Assembly: GCA_015065265.1 (NCBI GenBank)
Contig: SVQQ01000001.1
Location: 5,544-69,543, forward strand
Reading direction: 5' to 3'
DNA: 64,000 nucleotides
Source of the DNA: Oscillospiraceae bacterium
Lineage (GTDB): Bacteria; Bacillota; Clostridia; Oscillospirales; SIG627
Shown: piece by piece, positions 2 through 33,993 of the stretch
Layout: every line of letters starts with the position of its first letter
How positions within the stretch are numbered: the first letter of the stretch is position 1
Notes under the pieces: model-generated
Databases searched by the model: none
Seen by the model: only the letters and a program-made list of their open reading frames with translations
Told to the model about the DNA's origin: nothing
Position numbers and translations under genes: made by a program

Positions 2-358
2 GCCGATGCTTGTCCTCTCGGTGCGATAAGCAAGACCGAGACCGAAGAAGTAGAGATTGCAGGTAAAAAGTTCACAGTTGGAAAAATAGACTATAATAAG
101 TGTAAGATTTGTCAGAATGGCGCCGTTGTAAACCGTTTCTCATCCGACGCCAAGCCCGACAGAATAGCCGCACTTTGTAACCGTACCTGTATGTGTTCTC
201 TTGAAGAAAGAGAAGTGCTGGGAAATGTATTTGAGAATAAATTCCGTACAAGTGAAGTTTGGAGTATCGGACAGAGCAACGACGGACTTGACTTCTGTGC
301 CGATCAGGCAAACGTATTGGGAGGCTCTTTCTCAAAAAGCGGAAAGAGAGGTCACTGA
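2..358 (+). CDS. QueG/RdhA-superfamily Fe-S protein, C-terminal fragment (5' end outside window)
   Basis: Frame 2 is open from the window edge to TGA 356-358; the M-anchored ORF track misses it. The translation ...ADACPLGAI...NKCKIC...ALCNRTCMCSLEE... follows the Cys-motif order of the adjacent 372-aa paralogue. The next gene starts 2 nt after this stop. Confidence 0.55.
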   Translation, partial: ADACPLGAISKTETEEVEIAGKKFTVGKIDYNKCKICQNGAVVNRFSSDAKPDRIAALCNRTCMCSLEEREVLGNVFENKFRTSEVWSIGQSNDGLDFCADQANVLGGSFSKSGKRGH

Positions 359-360
359 AA

Positions 361-1479
361 ATGAAACTGACGTCTCAAATATTAAAGGAAAAGGCAAAAG
401 AACTTGGCATTGATTGCATTGCAATAGGCAACATTGAGAGATTTAAGAATGCCCCCAAGCTTATGAGCCCCCTTTCGTATTTTCCTAATGCAAAATCGGT
501 TATTGCAATAGCAATGCCTATCCCGAGAGGTGCTAACCGAGGAATTGAAGAAGGCACTCATTGGCACAACTACACCTTTTATACATACAACAAATTAAAC
601 TCATTTTTCAGACCTATCAAGACCTATGAACTTTCTTGTTTCATCGAAGATTGCGGATATGAAGCGGTAGCACATTACCCCGCCGTACCCGAAGGTAACG
701 GAACCACAAGAAAGCCTGTGGCGGAAGGAAAACTTCCCCCCGACGTAGTTTGCAGTATCCGTGTAATTGCGGCAGGCTGCGGTCTTGGTGAAATTGGTTG
801 GTCTAAAGTATTCCTCACAAAGAAATACGGTCCGCGAGTAAGACTCGGACTCATCTTCACCGACGCAGAACTTGAACCCGACCCGATTTTAGATACGGGT
901 ACTATCTGTACTCACTGCGGAGCCTGTGCAAGAGGTTGTCCCGGAGGGGCAATTCCCGACCCCAAGGACGAAAACGCTCGTATTACAGTAGATTTCGGTG
1001 AAAAGCAGATATACTTCGGTGACGTTCAGATGGGAAGATGTACTCTTTCTCACCACGGTATGAACAACGAATGTTCACCCTTCTTGAAGAAAGAATTTCC
1101 CAATATGGCGTTTGACGTCAGAAATTCACAGATGACCGAAGAAGAAGCATATATTCTCTGCTATTCTCTTGCGGGCGCTAAATGGGGACGTAAACCCGGA
1201 AGCCACGCGGTTATGGAATATTACAGCCACATACTTAACCACACGGGTTACTTTGCTATATGCGGTGCGAGAGGTTGTATCCGTTCTTGTATGGACGCCC
1301 TTGAACGTTCGGGAAAAATAGAACAGACATTTAATAACAAGTACTTCAAGAACAAGAGATGGCAACTTCCTCTTCATCCCGAAAAGATATCCCGAGGTGT
1401 CAACCCTTACCGCGAAGAGTTCCTTGATAAACATTACCCCGGAATTCGCGAAAAAGAATATGAAAAGAAAGAAAAATAA
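361..1479 (+). CDS. epoxyqueuosine-reductase / reductive-dehalogenase-like protein (two 4Fe-4S motifs)
   Basis: ATG 361 is preceded by AGAGAGG. Motifs are CTHCGACARGCPGGAI (CxxCxxCxxxCP) and CGARGCIRSC. The blocks AKSVIAIAMPIP and IRVIAAGCGLGEIGWSKVFLT..YGPRVRLG line up with B. subtilis QueG as I recall it. Confidence 0.65.
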   Translation: MKLTSQILKEKAKELGIDCIAIGNIERFKNAPKLMSPLSYFPNAKSVIAIAMPIPRGANRGIEEGTHWHNYTFYTYNKLNSFFRPIKTYELSCFIEDCGYEAVAHYPAVPEGNGTTRKPVAEGKLPPDVVCSIRVIAAGCGLGEIGWSKVFLTKKYGPRVRLGLIFTDAELEPDPILDTGTICTHCGACARGCPGGAIPDPKDENARITVDFGEKQIYFGDVQMGRCTLSHHGMNNECSPFLKKEFPNMAFDVRNSQMTEEEAYILCYSLAGAKWGRKPGSHAVMEYYSHILNHTGYFAICGARGCIRSCMDALERSGKIEQTFNNKYFKNKRWQLPLHPEKISRGVNPYREEFLDKHYPGIREKEYEKKEK

Positions 1480-1501: not shown

Positions 1502-3763
1502 ATGTCTATTTCAGTGGTATATCCCGAAAGGGCGCATACGGCGTATAAGATTGCGGCAGAGGAGTTCGTCTCTTTGGCAAAAGAAGTTTCTACTCAAACT
1601 CTCACCCTTGTTTCAGACCACGAGGAACTTCCTTCCGACACTTCGTCTGTGGTAGTTATCGGTGCCGATTCCGTGAACAGCGTTTGTGCAAACCTCTATC
1701 TTAAAAGAAAAATCGGTGACTTCGGGATAAGATATAACACAGAAGACTATCGCGTTTATACAAAGAATATCGATGGGCTGGACTATCTTTTTATCGCGGG
1801 CGGAAGACCGAGAGCCACCTTGTATGCTATTTACCGCTATTTTGAGAAGTTTTGCGGCTGCCGTTGGTTCTGGGACGGAGACCGCATAACGAAGGTAAAA
1901 GAACTTCCCTTGACAAATATCGACCTTACCGAATCTCCTCGCTTTGAGTACAGAGGACTCAGATACTTTGCCCACCGCAGTCTTCACCGCTTCCAAGCGG
2001 AGCATTGGAGTCTTGAGGATTGGCAAAAAGAAATTGACTGGATGCTCAAAAAACGTCTCAATATGTTTATGCTTCGCATAGGCCTTGACGATATTTTCCA
2101 GAAGGCGTTTCCCGACGTGGTCGATTACCCCAAACTTAACGAGCCTTTACCCGAGGCAGGTATCGAGCATCACGACAGAAACCTGTTCTGGTCCCTTGAA
2201 TACCGCGGAGAACTTCGAAAGAAACTTCTTGCCTACGCCTTTGAACGTGACCTTATGCACCCCGAAGATTGCGGAACGGTTACCCATTGGTATTCACGTA
2301 CCCCCAAGTCCTTCCTTGAAAAAGTCAACCCCAAACTTTTGCACAGTACAAAATATAACGGCGAACTGACGGGGCAGACCTGGGACGTATTCGACGACAA
2401 TAACCTTGAAAATTACTTCAAACTCACCGAAACACATATCAAAGAATACGGAAAGGCGGAACTTTTTCACACCATAGGTCTTGCAGAGCGCAACTTCTCG
2501 GAAGACAGGGAAGAGAATATGCGACTCAAGATGTACGTGTACAGACGAATTGCATCCTTCTTGAAGGAAAAGCATCCTCAATCCAAACTCTTTATCGCAA
2601 GTTGGGACCTCTGGATGTTCTACACCCCCGAAGAGATACAGAGACTGCTCGGCGAACTTGACCCTTCGCAGTCGATTATTCTCGACTATACCTCGGACAC
2701 GGTGAGCAGCCGAAACTTCAAGAGTTGGGACATTGTAGGAAACTACCCTTGGGTATTCGGAATGTTTGGCGGATATGAGCCCGACAATGAATTCAGAGGT
2801 TTTTACGAATTAACAAACGAGCGTATTAAGATTGCAAAGGAAGACCCCATGTGTAAGGGCGTAATCCTTTGGCCCGAACTTTCTCACGGGGACACCTTGA
2901 TGACAGAGTATCTTGCCCGAAACGCGTGGGAAAAAGAGACTCTTTCTGTTGAAGAGACGGTGGATAACTACTGTTTCGACCGTTACCCCGAGGAGATGAG
3001 AGGGAAGATGCGAGAGATCTGGCGTGACTTTATGCCCATCGTACAGATGCGCTCGTGGAGCCCTACCGACAGCGTTACAATGTTCTGGGGACAGAACACT
3101 TTCACCTGGATGATAGAACGAGCTTCCTTCGAGGATAAGCCCTACCCCTATTACGGAAGAAGTCCGGAAGATGCGAGAACTTGTCAGAAAGAGGCAGTTC
3201 GCGTCTTAAAGGCGCTCTCGGAGATTGAGACAGATGACGAAATGCTTCGCCGTGACGTTTTCGATATTGCAAGAACTGTTATGGCAAGATATATAGACTG
3301 TGGAATTCGTCTTGCGGAATTACAGTATTTTAGCAAGGATGCGAAAATGACAGAGACTATGGACAAGACCGTCGATCTTATGACATCCCTTTCCAACCTT
3401 CTGTCAGGCCACAAGGACTTCTCACTCTTTGACTCTCTTGAGAAGATGAGAGCGGTGACCGAAACCAAGCGTGATTTTGAAATCACTCTCAAGCATAATG
3501 CCGAAGGCTATTACTGCCGTTCGTTTATTGCGGAAAATGCAAAATATCTCTATCTTCCCGAAATGAATATTATTTTTGACGAAGTCAAGAGAGCCTTTAA
3601 CAGCGGTAAAGAAATAGACAGAGAGAAGATAAACAGTGAGTTTAATAAAAACCGCGAACGCTACTTCAATACCCCCCTTCGTGATATGGCGTTTAACTGC
3701 GCGGACTTGAAAGAAGTCTTGAAGAGAGCGGCAGAAACGATTGACGAAATTAAATTTAATTAG
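1502..3763 (+). CDS. GH89-like alpha-N-acetylglucosaminidase (distant NAGLU homologue)
   Basis: ATG 1502 (MSISVVYPE) has AGGGAAG upstream; the track start at 1397 overlaps the previous gene. The blocks WQKEIDWM, HTIGLAERNF (cf. FNEM), PWVFGMFGGYEPDN (cf. HNFGGNHG) and ILWPELSHGD (cf. MAPEGISQNE) follow the NAGLU catalytic-domain order. Confidence 0.6.
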   Translation: MSISVVYPERAHTAYKIAAEEFVSLAKEVSTQTLTLVSDHEELPSDTSSVVVIGADSVNSVCANLYLKRKIGDFGIRYNTEDYRVYTKNIDGLDYLFIAGGRPRATLYAIYRYFEKFCGCRWFWDGDRITKVKELPLTNIDLTESPRFEYRGLRYFAHRSLHRFQAEHWSLEDWQKEIDWMLKKRLNMFMLRIGLDDIFQKAFPDVVDYPKLNEPLPEAGIEHHDRNLFWSLEYRGELRKKLLAYAFERDLMHPEDCGTVTHWYSRTPKSFLEKVNPKLLHSTKYNGELTGQTWDVFDDNNLENYFKLTETHIKEYGKAELFHTIGLAERNFSEDREENMRLKMYVYRRIASFLKEKHPQSKLFIASWDLWMFYTPEEIQRLLGELDPSQSIILDYTSDTVSSRNFKSWDIVGNYPWVFGMFGGYEPDNEFRGFYELTNERIKIAKEDPMCKGVILWPELSHGDTLMTEYLARNAWEKETLSVEETVDNYCFDRYPEEMRGKMREIWRDFMPIVQMRSWSPTDSVTMFWGQNTFTWMIERASFEDKPYPYYGRSPEDARTCQKEAVRVLKALSEIETDDEMLRRDVFDIARTVMARYIDCGIRLAELQYFSKDAKMTETMDKTVDLMTSLSNLLSGHKDFSLFDSLEKMRAVTETKRDFEITLKHNAEGYYCRSFIAENAKYLYLPEMNIIFDEVKRAFNSGKEIDREKINSEFNKNRERYFNTPLRDMAFNCADLKEVLKRAAETIDEIKFN

Positions 3764-3792: not shown

Positions 3793-4782
3793 ATGATTTG
3801 GGCAACCTACGCGACCCTTGGATACAGAATGTGGACCTACAGAAAAGCGCCGAAAAGTTTTACCTTTGAGGAAGAGGCTTGGAAGAGCCTTGTGAGGTGT
3901 GCAAAAGACAAGGGCCTTAATATGATAATCCTCGACCTCGGCGAAGGAGTTCAGTGGAAGTCGCACCCAGAAATTTCAATCGAGGGTGCGTGGAGTCACG
4001 AAAAGGTAAAAGAAGAGGTTCTGCGCCTTCGCGAGATGGGAATAGAACTCATCCCGAAGATGAATTTCTCTGCCTGTCATCATCTGTGGCTCGGTGAATA
4101 CAGACTTATGATGTGTACCCACACCTACTACACCGTTTGCCGTGACCTAATTGAAGAAGCGTATGAAATGTTCCTTCACCCCTCTTATATTCATCTTGGA
4201 ATGGACGAGGAAGGAAGCGAGACACAGTTTAAAATCTACGACCACATTGTAAACTACAGAAAAGGTGACATCTATTGGCACGACTACAAGTACTTGACCG
4301 ACTGTGTAAGAGAACTCGGTGCTACCCCTTGGGTATGGGGAGACTCGGCAATAGACGACTACGAAGGCTTTCGTAAGGCGGTTACCCCCGAGGACGACCT
4401 CATTGTTAACCCTTGGTGGTATCACGCGTGGAAGGAAGAGCACTTCAACCGTCTCGACAGCAGAGAGGACTGGTTCTGTCACCTTAAAACTCATCCCGAG
4501 CTTACCTATTTTGAAGAACTTCACGCGAGAACTATGGAAGGCTATAGAACCCTTGCCAAAGACGGATACAAACTCGTTCCCTGCGGTTCGTTTTTAGGTA
4601 GAGACGAGTGGTGTTTCGACGACCTATTAGACGAGTTTCGCGGTCTTTGCAAGAAGGAAAATCTGCTCGGCTTTATGACTGCCCCTTGGCGTCACACACG
4701 TGTTGAAAATATACCTTTAATCGAGGAAGATTTCGAATATTTAAGAAAAGCCCGAGAAAAATATTTCCCCGAAAATAAATAA
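3793..4782 (+). CDS. hypothetical TIM-barrel glycosidase-like protein (possibly GH20-like)
   Basis: AAGGAG lies upstream of ATG 3793. The protein is 329 aa with no signal peptide. LIPKMNFSACHH and IHLGMDEEG weakly resemble the hexosaminidase blocks IPEID.PGH and HIGGDE. Confidence 0.4.
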   Translation: MIWATYATLGYRMWTYRKAPKSFTFEEEAWKSLVRCAKDKGLNMIILDLGEGVQWKSHPEISIEGAWSHEKVKEEVLRLREMGIELIPKMNFSACHHLWLGEYRLMMCTHTYYTVCRDLIEEAYEMFLHPSYIHLGMDEEGSETQFKIYDHIVNYRKGDIYWHDYKYLTDCVRELGATPWVWGDSAIDDYEGFRKAVTPEDDLIVNPWWYHAWKEEHFNRLDSREDWFCHLKTHPELTYFEELHARTMEGYRTLAKDGYKLVPCGSFLGRDEWCFDDLLDEFRGLCKKENLLGFMTAPWRHTRVENIPLIEEDFEYLRKAREKYFPENK

Positions 4783-4807: not shown

Positions 4808-4849
4808 AAACACAAGTTTACACATCTTGTAAACTTGTGTTTTATTTTT
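4808..4849 (+). terminator. intrinsic terminator after the 3793-4782 gene
   Basis: A 15-bp perfect stem AAACACAAGTTTACA / TGTAAACTTGTGTTT with loop CATCT is followed by TTATTTTT. Confidence 0.8.
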
Positions 4850-4860
4850 GTGAAAAAGAA

Positions 4861-4889
4861 TTGACAAAGGGATATCCTTTTGCTAAAAT
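4861..4889 (+). promoter_or_regulatory. sigma-A promoter for the Gfo/Idh/MocA gene
   Basis: TTGACA (4861-4866), a 17-nt spacer, then TAAAAT (4884-4889). Confidence 0.65.
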
Positions 4890-4921
4890 AGTATCGAAAT
4901 TAAGTGTTTAGGAGTAGTATT

Positions 4922-6199
4922 ATGAAGCAGTTATCTCTTATAGTTATCGGTGGCGGGGACCGAGGAAGCAGTTATCTAAAAACCTTGCAGGTAACCCCCG
5001 AAAAGTTTAAACTTGTGGCAATTGCCGAGCCTGTAAAAGAAAAAAGAGACCACCTCAGAGATTTATATAACGTACCCGAGGAAATGTGTTTTGAAAGTTG
5101 GGAAGACCTGCTCTCCCTTGACAAAATCGCAGACGTCGCCCTCATTTGCACACAGGACAAGATGCACTTTGCTCCTGCTATGAAGGCTATCGAAAAGAAG
5201 TATGACCTACTTCTCGAAAAACCTATTGCCCCCACTCCCGAAGAGTGCTTTAAAATCTCAGAATATGCAAAAGAGCAGGGAGTAAAGGTGCTGGTTTGCC
5301 ACGTTCTGAGATACACCCCTTTCTATAAGGTGATAAAAGAGTTCATTGAAGAGGGGAATCTCGGCGAAGTTATAAACGTTGTACATACGGAAGGTGTTGG
5401 CAACGTACATATGAGCCATAGTTTCGTCAGAGGAAACTGGCGAAACACAGCGGAATCTGCCCCAATGATACTTGCAAAATGCTGTCACGACACAGATATG
5501 CTTCAATGGATTATGAAAGAGCCTTGCACTAAGGTACATTCCTTTGGTACTCGCGCATATTTCCGCAGTGAAAATGCCCCCGAAGGCGCTCCCAAGCGTT
5601 GTACCGACGGTTGTCCTCACAAGGACACTTGCTTCTACTATGCCCCCAACGTTTATAAAATTGACACCGCCGAAGTTCAACACTTCAGAGCCATTGCGGC
5701 AAACAAATTCAACCCCACCGACGAAGAGGTTGACGAAGTACTTAAAACGTCTCCCTACGGAAGATGTGTTTACTACTGCGACAACGACGTAGTTGACCAT
5801 CAGGTAGTAAGTATGCAGTTTGGCGAAAACAAACACGTAACCCTCACTATGTCCGCCTTTAATAAAGGTGGCAGAACTTCACATATTATGGGAACAAAAG
5901 GCGAACTTCGTGCCAATATGGAAGGTCAGGTTATGGAGTTTTACGACTATGCCACAAGAGAAACCACTCAGGTGTACCACCCCGAAAAAACCCTCGACTA
6001 TACTATTGCGGGAGGTCACGCAGGTGGCGACTTTGGAATAATGCAGGACCTTTACGACTACATTGTCCTTGACAAACCCTCAATTTCTATTTCAGACGTA
6101 TCCGCGTCCTGTCTTGCACACCTTATCTGCTTTGCGGCAGAGGAATCAAGACTGACTGACAAGGTTATTGATATGAAAGAGTATATAAAGACTTTATAA
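4922..6199 (+). CDS. Gfo/Idh/MocA family NAD(P)-dependent oxidoreductase
   Basis: ATG 4922 follows TAGGAG; the track start at 4904 is a GTG upstream of that RBS. The N-terminal Rossmann motif is LIVIGGGDRGSSY, with EKP and CHVLRY blocks. A Cys-rich insert reads CTDGCPHKDTC. Confidence 0.8.
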   Translation: MKQLSLIVIGGGDRGSSYLKTLQVTPEKFKLVAIAEPVKEKRDHLRDLYNVPEEMCFESWEDLLSLDKIADVALICTQDKMHFAPAMKAIEKKYDLLLEKPIAPTPEECFKISEYAKEQGVKVLVCHVLRYTPFYKVIKEFIEEGNLGEVINVVHTEGVGNVHMSHSFVRGNWRNTAESAPMILAKCCHDTDMLQWIMKEPCTKVHSFGTRAYFRSENAPEGAPKRCTDGCPHKDTCFYYAPNVYKIDTAEVQHFRAIAANKFNPTDEEVDEVLKTSPYGRCVYYCDNDVVDHQVVSMQFGENKHVTLTMSAFNKGGRTSHIMGTKGELRANMEGQVMEFYDYATRETTQVYHPEKTLDYTIAGGHAGGDFGIMQDLYDYIVLDKPSISISDVSASCLAHLICFAAEESRLTDKVIDMKEYIKTL

Positions 6200-6208
6200 A
6201 ATCAAATC

Positions 6209-6254
6209 AAAACAGGTTGGAAACCCAAAAGTTCTAACCTGTTTTATTTTTTTT
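6209..6254 (+). terminator. intrinsic terminator
   Basis: Stem AAAACAGGTT / AACCTGTTTT with a 17-nt loop, followed by a long T tract. Confidence 0.65.
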
Positions 6255-6284
6255 AATAGAAAATTCACAATTTTGTTTTTTTAC

Positions 6285-6313
6285 TTGTGTTTTTCGTTAT
6301 TTTGTGTTATCAT
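6285..6313 (+). promoter_or_regulatory. candidate extended -10 promoter for the aldo/keto reductase gene
   Basis: TTGTGT (6285-6290), a 17-nt spacer containing TGt, then TATCAT (6308-6313). Confidence 0.35.
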
Positions 6314-6357
6314 TTAAGAAACAGACCTATACTTATTAGAAAATAATTGGAAGTAAT

Positions 6358-7305
6358 ATGAAGTATTCTAATTCATTTGGTAAAGAAAGCTCAAAAATTT
6401 TACTTGGCACAGCATATTTTGGAGATACAATAAGCGAAGATAGTGCCTTTCACATAATGGACGTTTATCGTGAGATGGGAGGAACCCATATCGACACTGC
6501 CCGTCTTTATGCAGGTGGCGAGTCAGAGAAGGTAGTCTCCCGTTGGTTTAAATCGAGAAAGCCACAGAATATGCGACTTTCTACAAAAGGAGCATTCCCA
6601 AACCCCGAAACCCCCAACGTTCCAAGGGTAAATGAAAAAGAAATCAGACACGACCTTGATTTAAGTCTCAAGGCTCTTGACGTTGACTCTATTGAGTTTT
6701 ACTGGCTACATAGAGACGATGAAAATCAAGATGCAGGAGAGATTATAGAAATAATGAACTCTCTTGTAAAAGAGGGCAAAATATTGCGCTTTGGCGCGTC
6801 AAATTGGCGACATCAACGAGTTGACAGAGCGAACTCATATGCAAAAGAGCACGGACTTCAGGGCTTTTCCGGAGCACAGATAAGGTTCAGTCCTGCCATA
6901 ATTTCCCCAGACGGAAATGCAGACAGAACACTTGTTGATATGAGTGAAGAAGCCTTTGATTATTACAAAGAGAACAATATCCCCGTTGCCGCCTACGCAT
7001 CACAGGCAAAAGGTTTTTTCTCAAAAATGGCAACGATAGGCGAGTCGGGTCTTAACGTAAAGTCAAAAGAGAGATATTTGTGCGAAGAAAATCTAAAAAG
7101 ACTTGACGTGATAAAGGCACTTTCCGAAAAATATTCAATATCGGTGGCATCAACCGTCTGTGCCTCACTTATAAATCTTGAAAACCCCGACGTTTACGCC
7201 ATAATCGGTGGCAGTAAGCCCGAACAAATTGTAGACTCAATGTCAGGTTGCGACACAACCTTTGAAAAAAACGAACTGGAAGAGATTTTCAAATATAAAA
7301 TATAG
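6358..7305 (+). CDS. aldo/keto reductase
   Basis: 315 aa. GTHIDTARLYAGGESE, YWLHRDD and FGASNW are typical AKR blocks. Confidence 0.8.
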   Translation: MKYSNSFGKESSKILLGTAYFGDTISEDSAFHIMDVYREMGGTHIDTARLYAGGESEKVVSRWFKSRKPQNMRLSTKGAFPNPETPNVPRVNEKEIRHDLDLSLKALDVDSIEFYWLHRDDENQDAGEIIEIMNSLVKEGKILRFGASNWRHQRVDRANSYAKEHGLQGFSGAQIRFSPAIISPDGNADRTLVDMSEEAFDYYKENNIPVAAYASQAKGFFSKMATIGESGLNVKSKERYLCEENLKRLDVIKALSEKYSISVASTVCASLINLENPDVYAIIGGSKPEQIVDSMSGCDTTFEKNELEEIFKYKI

Positions 7306-7326
7306 TTTTGGAAGGACGTATCTAAA

Positions 7327-8169
7327 ATGATAAAGACAGAACTTGTTATTATGGCTGCAGGAATGGGCAGCCGCTTCGGAGGACTCAAACAGATAGCCCC
7401 CTTCGGTCCAAAAGGAGAGGCGCTCCTTGATTTTTCCCTCTACGACGCTAAAAAAGCAGGATTTGATAAAACCATAATTATCATTAAGAAGGAAATAGAA
7501 AAAGATTTCAGAGAGGCTTGTGGAAAACGAATTGAAAAGATAATGGACGTTGACTACGCTTTTCAGGAATTGGACAAATTACCTGAAGGATACAGTGTTC
7601 CCGAAGGAAGACAGAAGCCTTGGGGCACAGGACATGCGGTACTCTCGGCAAAGGATAAGATAACTTCCCCCTTTGCAGTTATCAACGCCGACGACTATTA
7701 CGGTCAGTCCTCTTATAAGATCATTCACGACCACCTTGTTTCCTCTGACGAAATGTGTATGGTGGGATACCGCCTTGGCAACACCATCACCGAAAACGGA
7801 ACAGTGTCACGTGGTGTGTGTCAGGTGGAGAACGGATATCTGACCGGCATTGAAGAAGTGACCGCAATAGACAAAAATTCGGGAATACCTCTTGATACAA
7901 CGGTTTCAATGAATATGTGGGGCTTTGCTCCCGACATTCTCGATTATCTTGAAGTACAGTTTAAGAAATTCCTTGACGAAAGAATAAATGAGCCTAAATC
8001 GGAATTTTTCCTGCCATTTGCAGTTAGCACAAGAATGGCGGAAGAAAATAAAAAAGTTAAAGTTCTTACCACAGATGAACAGTGGTACGGTGTAACCTAT
8101 AAAGAAGATAGCGACACGGTAAGAAGGGCAATGGAAAAATTTATTGCGGAAGGAAAATATGAGTTATGA
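7327..8169 (+). CDS. sugar-1-phosphate nucleotidyltransferase family protein
   Basis: The N-terminal motif VIMAAGMGSRFGGLKQ is a G-rich NTP-transferase signature. KPWGTGHAV and INADDYYG blocks are present. The stop overlaps the next start (ATGA). Confidence 0.7.
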   Translation: MIKTELVIMAAGMGSRFGGLKQIAPFGPKGEALLDFSLYDAKKAGFDKTIIIIKKEIEKDFREACGKRIEKIMDVDYAFQELDKLPEGYSVPEGRQKPWGTGHAVLSAKDKITSPFAVINADDYYGQSSYKIIHDHLVSSDEMCMVGYRLGNTITENGTVSRGVCQVENGYLTGIEEVTAIDKNSGIPLDTTVSMNMWGFAPDILDYLEVQFKKFLDERINEPKSEFFLPFAVSTRMAEENKKVKVLTTDEQWYGVTYKEDSDTVRRAMEKFIAEGKYEL

Positions 8170-32517: not shown

Positions 32518-33993
32518 ATGAAAAGAATTTTATCTTTAGTGCTTGTACTCGTAATGCTCTTTTCTGCAGTTGTAATGACCCTTACTTCTTGCGGTGAAGA
32601 CAAAAAACCTGCAGATGTCAAGCCGAATAATAATCAGAATGGCGGCGGAGAGTCCGAAGACAGCATCTATGCTGAACGTGAGGCAATCGACGACGAACTT
32701 CCCGAAAGAGATTATAAGGGAAGAACCTTCAGAATCGCTTCCCCCAGACCTACCGAAATTAAGGTAAGTGAAACCGCTATCAATAAGGGTAACCTTATCC
32801 TTGACGCGAAATATGACAGAAACCAGGCAGTTGAAAACAGATTTAACGTAAATGTTGAAGTTGTTTACGGTTCTACTGCTACCTCAGAAGTTAACACCTA
32901 CGTAGCAAAGACCATTCTTTCAGGTGTAGATGAATTCGACCTCTTCATCGGTCACCAGGGTTCAACAGGTGCGCTGGTACTTAAAAACCTTTTCACCAAC
33001 TGGTATGACATCGACTACGTTGACTTTGACAAACCTTGGTGGGCAGACTCATGTAAAGATGAACTTACATACGACGGAAAAGCAATTCTTGCAGTTTCCG
33101 ACCTCAACCATCAGGCTATTGAATGTACCTATGCAATGTTCTTCAACAAGAGCATGGCAGCATCCTATGAGCTTGGTAACCTTTATAACATAGCTCTTAA
33201 TGGCAACTGGACATACGACACATTCTACGGTATGATCAAGGACATCTGGGAAGACGACGGAGACGGCAAGAAGAACTCAAACGACACATTCGGATTTGTT
33301 ACCGACGGTGGCGACCAGACAACTCAGTGGCTCTACGCTTTTGAAAACCCCATTATGACAAAAGACGCAGACGGAGTTCCTCAGATATCTCTTAAGACAA
33401 GTAAGATAAACGATATCGTTAAGAAGATCTACGACCTTAACAACAATACAACAGGTTCGTATTTCCCCAAGGACGATGCTTGGACACGTAGTATGTTTAT
33501 TGAAGGCAAGGCAATGTTCATTATCGCAAGAATTGACTTTGCAGATACACCCGACCTTCGTAACTTTACAGACGATTACGGAATTCTTCCTATTCCCAAG
33601 TACGACGAAAACCAGCAATCTTACCACACAATGTCTTATGCTGAACAGACAGTACTTGCAGTACCCAAGACCGCAAAAGACCTTGAATTTGTAGGTATCA
33701 TCACAGAAGCACTTTCAGCAGAAAGTTACAAGAAGCTTACTCCTACCTTCTATGAAATCGCTCTTAAATCACGTTACCTTCGTGACGATGAGTCCAAAGA
33801 AGTTCTTGATATCATCATCGAAAACCGTGTATTCGACTTCGGTTACATCTATTCAGGAACAGGTTCATTCGGCTCTGTTCTCCATGACGTTGTTACAGCC
33901 GGTGGTAACTTTGAATCATACTACCAGCAGAAGAGTCGTATAGCCGGTATCCACTATGACAGAGTTATCAAGGCATTCGACAAATTAAGCTAA
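32518..33993 (+). CDS. extracellular solute-binding lipoprotein (sugar ABC-type, large LplA-like class), orphan
   Basis: AAGGAG RBS. Signal peptide with lipobox LTSC. The protein is 491 aa. The gene ends in TAA TAG TAA. Confidence 0.7.
   Translation: MKRILSLVLVLVMLFSAVVMTLTSCGEDKKPADVKPNNNQNGGGESEDSIYAEREAIDDELPERDYKGRTFRIASPRPTEIKVSETAINKGNLILDAKYDRNQAVENRFNVNVEVVYGSTATSEVNTYVAKTILSGVDEFDLFIGHQGSTGALVLKNLFTNWYDIDYVDFDKPWWADSCKDELTYDGKAILAVSDLNHQAIECTYAMFFNKSMAASYELGNLYNIALNGNWTYDTFYGMIKDIWEDDGDGKKNSNDTFGFVTDGGDQTTQWLYAFENPIMTKDADGVPQISLKTSKINDIVKKIYDLNNNTTGSYFPKDDAWTRSMFIEGKAMFIIARIDFADTPDLRNFTDDYGILPIPKYDENQQSYHTMSYAEQTVLAVPKTAKDLEFVGIITEALSAESYKKLTPTFYEIALKSRYLRDDESKEVLDIIIENRVFDFGYIYSGTGSFGSVLHDVVTAGGNFESYYQQKSRIAGIHYDRVIKAFDKLS

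Follow-up and report, generated by a model that had tools for sequence, protein, structure and literature searches.

We analysed a stretch of 64,000 nucleotides from an Oscillospiraceae bacterium (assembly GCA_015065265.1, contig SVQQ01000001.1, positions 5,544 to 69,543 of the forward strand), here called the window, at the left edge of which lie two adjacent open reading frames, ORF1 and ORF2, whose products resemble epoxyqueuosine reductase (QueG) and reductive dehalogenases (RdhA). Enzymes of the RdhA/QueG superfamily carry a base-off corrinoid and two [4Fe-4S] clusters. To our knowledge, only two types of reaction are known for this B12/Fe-S fold, the reduction of epoxyqueuosine on tRNA and the reduction of organohalides.

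Layout of the gene pair

ORF1 occupies positions 2-358 of the forward strand. Its reading frame is open from base 2 of the window, ends at a TGA stop (356-358) and encodes the C-terminal 118 amino acids (aa), plus the stop, of an RdhA/QueG-like paralogue of about 305 aa, the fragment ending in GKRGH. The gene is incomplete solely through the window edge, its full-length homologues being 301-306 aa long. A Shine-Dalgarno-like GAGAGG, read from the sequence, lies within the end of ORF1 (346-351, forward strand), 9 nt upstream of the ATG of ORF2. From this ATG at position 361, ORF2 runs on the same strand to a stop at 1477-1479 and encodes a 372-aa RdhA/QueG-like protein, the putative catalytic subunit. 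An earlier reading of the window made from the letters and a list of open reading frames (the sequence-only reading) had already placed the two genes 2 nt apart, with a GH89-like gene close behind, which we found 22 nt after the ORF2 stop; the cysteine motifs that it quoted from ORF2 and from the ORF1 fragment are all present in the translations.

The first 175 residues of ORF2 (361-885, forward strand, as are all of the following features of this gene) make up a nitroreductase-like domain of the corrinoid-binding type, delimited by an hhalign alignment to Escherichia coli QueG and by collinear RdhA/QueG matches. This domain contains Arg134 (codon 760-762), identified by an ungapped alignment to Arg141 of Bacillus subtilis QueG, and the loop G141-L-G-E-I-G ... 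G157-P-R-V-R161 (781-843), which is common to RdhA and QueG and whose R161 aligns with Arg305 of PceA. The first [4Fe-4S] motif, C183-x2-C186-x2-C189-x3-C193-P (907-939; residues 183-198 read CTHCGACARGCPGGAI), is invariant in 44/44 and 120/120 homologues. The second set of cysteines, C227, C301, C306 and C310 (1039-1290), brackets a conserved ferredoxin-domain insert of about 73 residues (228-300) and includes the motif C301-x4-C306-x3-C310 (residues 301-310, CGARGCIRSC). The eight cysteines of the two motifs are invariant in ORF2 homologues. Eight are also kept in the ORF1 type, a 'degenerate' subunit type that retains its ferredoxin-domain cysteines; they are arranged as C-x2-C-x2-C-x3-C plus C-x2-C...C-x3-C in the homologue alignment, and the ORF1 fragment contains ADACPLGAI, NKCKIC and CNRTCMCSLEE.

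Fold, pairing and divergence of the two subunits

An AlphaFold2 model of ORF2 (pLDDT 89.9, pTM 0.87) and one of the full-length ORF1 homologue P0185 (pLDDT 89.8), which shares 83% identity with the fragment of the window, were compared with PDB structures by Foldseek. Each model gave 46 matches at E <= 1e-3, every one of which was a chain of QueG, PceA, NpRdhA or a reductive dehalogenase (RDH) complex. The best matches of the ORF2 model were to QueG (E 4e-9), and the next-ranked matches of both models were the B12 chaperones CblC and CblD (E 2e-3 to 7e-2). A profile of the ORF2 family, built from 44 sequences, matched the RDH complex 8q4h (2.6e-20), PceA (5.4e-15), QueG (1.2e-12) and NpRdhA (6.6e-11) among PDB sequences, with weak collinear N-terminal matches in addition, while the single ORF2 sequence matched PceA, RDH, QueG and NpRdhA over residues ~135-210 only. 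Alignment of the profile with E. coli QueG by hhalign, the QueG domain limits being those of PMC4646009, gave a probability of 94% over 172 columns and paired residues 5-204 of ORF2 with residues 11-210 of QueG.

Pfam returned weak Fer4 matches only for ORF2, and no match for the 118-aa fragment of ORF1. The profile and fold searches agree with the sequence-only reading, which had aligned the N-terminal half of ORF2 with QueG by eye and had recommended such searches as a check, in that both proteins matched QueG and RdhA, and then B12 chaperones. As QueG and RdhA make up all of the top 46 PDB fold matches of each model, a generic ferredoxin-domain identity was ruled out for the two proteins. 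There is thus little doubt that ORF1 and ORF2 both belong to the RdhA/QueG superfamily, and the models predict that both consist of its N-terminal nitroreductase-like domain and its ferredoxin domain.

Comparison of a full-length ORF1 homologue with ORF2 showed 34% identity over 233 aa (E 1e-40), which bears out the paralogy claimed earlier; since the paralogues are only 34% identical, the duplication is ancient. Over residues 188-305 of full-length homologues, the ORF1 fragment of the window shows 74-83% identity, the value for one homologue of 305 aa being 74%. Related loci were retrieved with a single-protein query, and 88 were fetched, 80 of them at the species level; the search for the ORF1 family was run with a full-length homologue, the 118-aa fragment having retrieved short fragments only. 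An ORF1 homologue was located immediately 5' of the ORF2 homologue in 88/88 loci, and the distance from stop to start was -4 to +2 nt in 71 of the 80 species-level loci, a spacing by which the two genes are shown, at the level of sequence, to be translationally coupled. The pairing persisted in distant relatives: at 52% identity the two proteins have 296 and 370 aa and their genes follow one for an IclR regulator, and at 43% identity they have 264 and 357 aa and follow an AraC regulator. Moreover, tandem fusions of 730-836 aa represented 39 of the 150 top clusters of a representative library of 1.84 billion proteins. From the strict pairing, the coupled spacing, the persistence in distant relatives and the fusions, we infer that ORF1 and ORF2 work together in a complex, probably a heteromer.

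The N-terminal module of the fusions is ORF2-like and the C-terminal module ORF1-like; the idea that fusions of ~770 aa copy the gene order ORF1-ORF2 was rejected, their module order being reversed. In the fusions (P0285, P0303, P0308 and 36 other clusters; L089:1829-4111), RdhA/QueG-like modules follow one another in tandem, two of them strong and one weak. For one fusion, an archaeal host is suggested by a gene of the Zn_Ribbon_TF (TFIIB) type on its contig.

We then compared the two subunits in an alignment of 120 ORF2 homologues, 120 ORF1 homologues and two distant pairs. Position 134 (ORF2 numbering) was an arginine in 120/120 ORF2 sequences, whereas it was an aspartate in 118/120 ORF1 sequences and an asparagine or a glutamate in ORF1 of the distant pairs. 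The loop A-G-x-G-x-x-G ... G-P/S-x-x-R that precedes the first Fe-S motif was found in ORF2, with G-E-I-G at positions 143-146, while ORF1 had C-(T/S)-I-S at these positions and a degenerate loop (G-L-C-T-I-S) in 118/120 sequences. An aspartate was present at position 128 in 112/120 ORF2 sequences and an asparagine in the ORF1 type; H67, H69, Y76 and D97 were invariant in ORF2 homologues alone and were not conserved in ORF1, whereas R161 was invariant and retained by both paralogues. In the insert (residues 228-300), 31 of the 73 positions were invariant among the ORF2 homologues, whereas most of the insert was missing from ORF1, of which >90% of the homologues were gapped at positions 241-277 and 286-305.

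ORF2 R134 and B. subtilis QueG Arg141 align without gaps in the pattern R-x6-G-x-G. In the QueG structure, Arg141 lies 4 Å beneath the corrin ring and its mutation reduces activity (PMC5175355). This correspondence is the single, and indirect, indication that ORF2 may bind a corrinoid. The loss from ORF1 of the sub-corrin arginine, the G-x-G-E-x-G loop and the insert, all of which are kept in ORF2, suggests one catalytic and one degenerate subunit. We regard it as an even call, on the alignment, that ORF2 would be the catalytic, corrinoid-binding subunit and ORF1 its degenerate, Fe-S-bearing partner. The two genes are not equivalent, a point that the sequence-only reading had overlooked: residues common to ORF2 and the QueG corrinoid site are missing from ORF1.

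Genomic neighbourhood of the pair

Among 185,579 species-representative genomes, 478 contained close relatives. Of these 478, the best 80 all belonged to uncultured Oscillospirales or Christensenellales (Faecousia, Acutalibacteraceae, Oscillospiraceae and Christensenellaceae) and came from ruminant, other mammalian and chicken guts; the family also comprises thousands of metagenome proteins, and distant pairs and fusions occur in other lineages. A divergently transcribed gene for an AraC-type regulator was found in 72 of the 80 loci and was the sole conserved neighbour, the conserved unit being the divergent AraC regulator, ORF1 and ORF2. In the window, the AraC gene would lie just past the left edge, and it was because of this location that it had been missed before. 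Regulators of the AraC and IclR types are typical of sugar and small-metabolite operons.

A Pfam census of 135 neighbour proteins, run as a downstream and an upstream set, showed that GH20 and NAGLU were the commonest non-regulator families on either side of the module. Fifteen GH20/GH89-like genes were located at 1.5 kb or less from the module (218 kb of sequence), while none was found in the 851 kb at 1.5-10 kb. Most of these neighbours were on the same strand, 10-125 nt away, and at least six arrangements were seen: the GH20 gene followed the pair, was inserted between the AraC gene and the pair or was a long convergent one, and the GH89-like gene followed the pair, preceded it or was divergent beyond the AraC gene. 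The link to glycans drawn by the sequence-only reading therefore stood for the 15 of 80 species-level loci in which a GH20/GH89-like gene adjoins the module, and failed for the other 65, where no hexosaminidase adjoins it; most flanks hold housekeeping genes, such as those for IMPDH, RF, OTCase and UvrB.

The synteny of the pair with a GH89-like gene and nahK, expected by the same reading, was not conserved: a GH89-like gene was near the pair in 6/80 loci and a NahK-like gene in one species only. A counterpart of the 329-aa GH20-like gene of the window was found in 1/80 loci (L037, 44% identical, directly after the pair), and homologues of the GFO, aldo-keto reductase (AKR), nucleotidyltransferase and MFS genes of the window were near the pair in 0/80. 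The suggestion that the pair serves as an electron module dedicated to the locus found no support either, because the module travels without that locus.

In the window itself, the GH89-like and GH20-like genes are both located directly 3' of ORF2. The first encodes a GH89-like (NAGLU-like) glycoside hydrolase (1502-3763, forward strand), the likeliest start being the ATG at 1502. Its TIM barrel passed the Pfam cut-off (PF05089, 1.7e-16, 60.6 bits for a cut-off of 25.5) and its NAGLU C domain was matched at 2.6e-6, while the N domain (6.6e-5, 23.1 bits) remained under the cut-off of 28.3; the protein matched human NAGLU (4xwh) at 3.3e-11. As judged from these scores the hydrolase is divergent, hence the designation 'GH89-like'. 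The second gene (3793-4782, forward strand) encodes a minimal GH20-like catalytic-domain protein of 329 aa that matched PDB entries 9fym/9fyl (8e-9) and the beta-N-acetylhexosaminidase 8bal (1e-4), and that is barely visible to Pfam (AP_endonuc_2, E 0.005).

Consensus scans alone located a terminator-like hairpin with a 15-bp stem (4808-4842, forward strand) and, 19 nt after it, a promoter-like site with 11/12 matches and an extended -10 (4861-4889, forward strand). A first transcription unit would thus probably comprise ORF1, ORF2 and the GH89-like and GH20-like genes and end at 4808-4889. A second would probably comprise the genes for a GFO/IDH/MocA oxidoreductase, an aldo-keto reductase, a nucleotidyltransferase, a NahK-like kinase and an MFS transporter (4904-10583, forward strand; Pfam assignments). 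The hairpin and the promoter-like site suggest that the nahK cluster is transcribed separately, at variance with the synteny of the pair, the GH89-like gene and nahK that the sequence-only reading had proposed to test. The GFO, AKR, nucleotidyltransferase and NahK-like genes could encode an oxidative or a nucleotide-sugar route for hexosamine. The GFO/IDH/MocA oxidoreductase (4904-6199, forward strand, 431 aa) showed weak NCBIfam matches to glycoside/disaccharide 3-dehydrogenase (BT_2158/BT_2159) and to UDP-GlcNAc 3-dehydrogenase.

Other genes adjoining the module in related loci included a GH36-family gene and DUF5696 (GH-like). In three Christensenellaceae loci (L057, L059 and L067), the module has a GH89-like gene in divergent orientation on one side and, on the other, a convergent gene for a DUF5696 protein with a weak GH101-like match. 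Proteins of ~690 aa are encoded on the same strand, 0-42 nt after the pair, in the loci of five species (L019:10089-12188, L033:4047-6113, L039:11116-13140, L044:11119-13185 and L048:1677-3743). We suspected a divergent GH89 family, and this found no support in comparisons with the GH89-like protein, Pfam and PDB sequences, none of which gave a match; they may represent glycosidases that have escaped recognition, or a further partner of the reductase. In addition, a sulfatase of the SGSH_C (N-sulfoglucosamine sulfohydrolase) type is encoded at L091:3556-5016, ~2 kb from the IclR-associated copy of the pair at 52% identity.

Further along the window, a perfect hairpin with a 20-bp stem and T-runs on both strands (10582-10626), which looks like a bidirectional terminator, separates the convergent MFS and GH3 genes. 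The GH3 enzyme (10631-13018, reverse strand) has permuted domains, with Glyco_hydro_3_C at residues 60-315 and Glyco_hydro_3 (N) at residues 545-789, and its gene has its own AraC regulator of the cupin type at 12859-13851. The glycan locus gives way to housekeeping genes at a single tRNA gene (13937-14008, forward strand; Rfam, 60.8 bits). Among these housekeeping genes, a 491-aa open reading frame (32518-33993, forward strand), located near genes for LepA and a Na/Pi cotransporter, had no Pfam match. PolC is encoded elsewhere in the window, which fits Bacillota.

Proposed function and comparison with known systems

We lean slightly towards the reading in which ORF1 and ORF2 constitute an AraC-controlled, cytoplasmic, two-subunit reductase of the RdhA/QueG superfamily, the substrate of which may be tied to N-acetylhexosaminides. 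By analogy with the two known reactions of the fold, in which epoxides are reduced or C-halogen bonds cleaved, a low-potential donor (ferredoxin or flavodoxin) would feed electrons into the Fe-S clusters, possibly via ORF1, which with its two clusters would be an electron-entry or structural partner. The clusters would reduce a corrinoid in ORF2 to cob(I)alamin, and cob(I)alamin would use two electrons to cleave a C-O or C-X bond reductively. The small molecule containing this bond would, as the recurrent operon partners suggest, be released by, or travel with, N-acetylhexosaminides. Since exo-hexosaminidases of both alpha and beta specificity alternate as operon partners of the module, their common denominator is most plausibly the released (possibly modified) N-acetylhexosamine (HexNAc) or a shared aglycone. 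The link of the substrate to HexNAc itself is tentative, with odds somewhat against it. More speculative still, and on balance doubtful, is a third functional class of the superfamily, a heteromer that would cleave C-O or C-X bonds of a HexNAc-derived or HexNAc-conjugated compound during the use of host or dietary glycans.

Several observations weigh against the proposed reductase. The TM-scores of the models to QueG and RdhA were only 0.33-0.50. The QueG/RdhA counterpart of ORF2 residues ~135-205 partly forms the environment of Fe-S cluster I (PMC4646009), and for this reason the conservation of that block does not, on its own, prove a corrinoid pocket. The equivalents of the catalytic tyrosine and aspartate could not be placed with confidence: that of PceA Tyr246 would be Y71 or Y76, hhalign and MAFFT disagreeing around residues 65-85, and D128, the candidate equivalent of B. 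subtilis QueG Asp134, is located six residues before R134 and not seven. The evidence for the heteromer consists of gene order and of the fused relatives. An Rfam scan of the window and of four loci found no cobalamin riboswitch, nor was any cobamide gene seen around the module. The sugar link holds for a minority of the loci only, and the counts are not independent, the 80 loci being those of related species.

The absence of sugar genes beside the module in most loci would suit a catabolic or detoxifying reductive dehalogenase of the cytoplasm, with gut organohalides as substrates and glycosidase genes as incidental neighbours. The best sequence and profile matches of ORF2 are indeed to RdhA (TIGR02486 at 2.5e-12 and 8q4h at 2.6e-20), and R161 aligns with the catalytic Arg305 of PceA. 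We consider this explanation improbable, because ORF2 scored 47.3 bits against TIGR02486, the cut-off of which is 160.35, and the ORF1 fragment scored 16.7 bits, also below it, and because PF13486 (Dehalogenase) was not detected in the Pfam scan. The N-termini MKLTSQILKEKAKELG and MNNFKEKIKEFAKADG are without a twin-arginine (RR/TAT) motif, and no RdhB-like gene was found, there being no conserved small gene or small membrane protein adjoining the pair in the 80 loci; the two absences point to a cytoplasmic, non-respiratory enzyme, as predicted from the genes. The regulators of the AraC and IclR types, the hexosaminidase genes concentrated right at the module and the fermentative gut Oscillospirales that carry it also argue against a dehalogenase.

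An equally unlikely explanation is an RdhA/QueG scaffold that functions without a corrinoid, as an Fe-S, possibly flavin-binding, electron shuttle or as a B12-free reductase. The fold matches argue against it, since they are to B12 enzymes and then to B12 chaperones, with no flavin nitroreductases among them, although the nitroreductase-like N-terminal domain would by itself accommodate the flavin variant. In its favour, Pfam detects Fer4 families only, ORF1 has lost residues that ORF2 has in common with QueG, the conserved block serves in part the Fe-S cluster I environment, as mentioned above, and no B12-related gene or riboswitch was found nearby. However, ORF2 keeps the sub-corrin arginine in 120/120 homologues together with the G-x-G-E-x-G loop, and strong purifying selection acts on the extra insert beside the proximal cluster.

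Some homologues are labelled 'epoxyqueuosine reductase' by the JGI annotation, and this label, the hhalign probability and the retained equivalent of Arg141 would agree with ORF2, or the pair, being a divergent QueG isoform with tRNA or salvaged epoxyqueuosine/epoxyqueuine as its substrate. ORF2 scored 39.4 bits (E 3.5e-10) against TIGR00276, far below its cut-off of 200, and Pfam did not detect PF08331 (QueG_DUF1730) in it. The C-terminal HEAT-repeat tRNA-binding domain of QueG (~115-130 aa) was defined in PMC4646009 and PMC5175355. Pfam gave no HEAT match and the hhalign alignment ended at QueG residue 210. ORF2 ends 62 residues after its last cysteine, C310, and so leaves no room for this domain; the ORF1 type extends ~55 residues past its last cysteine. 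QueG proteins strictly preserve a D-Y-H motif (PMC4646009), of which ORF2 has no conserved counterpart: in the hhalign alignment, the R-D-Y-H of E. coli QueG faces non-conserved residues of ORF2. The two-subunit, AraC-regulated unit also had no queuosine genes among its neighbours in the Pfam census of the flanks. The membership tests and the synteny thus all but rule out a QueG isoform. All but ruled out too, and with still less left in its favour, is a recent local duplication without functional coupling that would lie in a glycan locus by chance, since the variable downstream genes of most related genomes are outweighed by the presence of the pair in 88/88 loci, by its coupled stop and start codons, by an ancient divergence in which each paralogue has its own conserved signature, and by a pairing that persists at 43-52% identity and as fusions.

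No paper or entry covering this protein family was found in the literature and in the curated families searched (Pfam, NCBIfam). The Asgard 'putative RDases' (PMC6737245) were considered as members of the same group and rejected, as they carry PF13486 and form a different one. We judge the module to be neither QueG nor RdhA proper and to be a variant of a known enzyme class with a new architecture. This architecture is best described, from the sequences, as a putative paralogous heteromer with a ferredoxin-domain insert and without accessory domains, in a new genomic association with hexosaminidases.

The two-subunit form of the fold described here is widespread, unannotated and strongly conserved. 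Its copies in gut Oscillospirales and Christensenellales are found under sugar-type regulators and are repeatedly tied to exo-N-acetylhexosaminidases. If the proposed reductase is B12-dependent, it would represent a new cobamide-requiring function in gut fermenters, with a bearing on corrinoid cross-feeding, and the module would hint at a reductive transformation in the use of mucin, chitin or glycosaminoglycan-type glycans. A B12-dependent reductive step in carbohydrate catabolism, if true, would be previously undescribed, and the enzyme class would gain a new architecture, in which one paralogue is catalytic and the other degenerate.

Comparison of the pair with QueG (TIGR00276; PDB 5d08, 5d0a, 5t8y and 5d6s) showed the same succession of a nitroreductase-like corrinoid domain and a two-[4Fe-4S] ferredoxin domain. 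QueG is cytoplasmic, as is predicted for the pair, both are without a TAT signal, and ORF2 retains the equivalent of Arg141 and the A-G-x-G loop. The pair differs from QueG in having neither the HEAT domain nor D-Y-H, while ORF2 possesses the ferredoxin insert of ~73 residues and a second motif of the form C-x4-C-x3-C instead of C-x2-C-x3-C. QueG is a monomer, whereas the module consists of two paralogous subunits, is AraC-regulated and has glycosidase neighbours. Comparison with RdhA (PceA, 4uqu; RDH complex, 8q4h; TIGR02486, PF13486) showed that it shares with ORF2 the best profile matches, the layout of the cofactor domains and the loop A-G-L-G-x-x-G...F-G-P-x-x-R, including the equivalent of PceA Arg305, and the PceA homodimer is a precedent for a dimeric assembly. 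However, the pair has no TAT signal, RdhB anchor or PF13486 match, its proteins are shorter (372 and ~305 aa instead of 440-500 aa), its assembly would be a heteromer of diverged paralogues and its hosts are fermentative gut Clostridia.

NpRdhA (4ras, 6zy1), which is catabolic and self-sufficient, is a cytoplasmic, non-respiratory member of the fold, as is predicted for the pair, and was matched by the profile at 6.6e-11 over ORF2 residues 120-226. It is ~700 aa long and has its own fused reductase domain, whereas in the module a separate paralogous subunit would add redox capacity. The B12-trafficking proteins CblC/MMACHC and CblD share with the pair the nitroreductase-like B12-binding fold; unlike the pair, they have neither a ferredoxin domain nor Fe-S clusters, and their task is cofactor processing, not substrate turnover.

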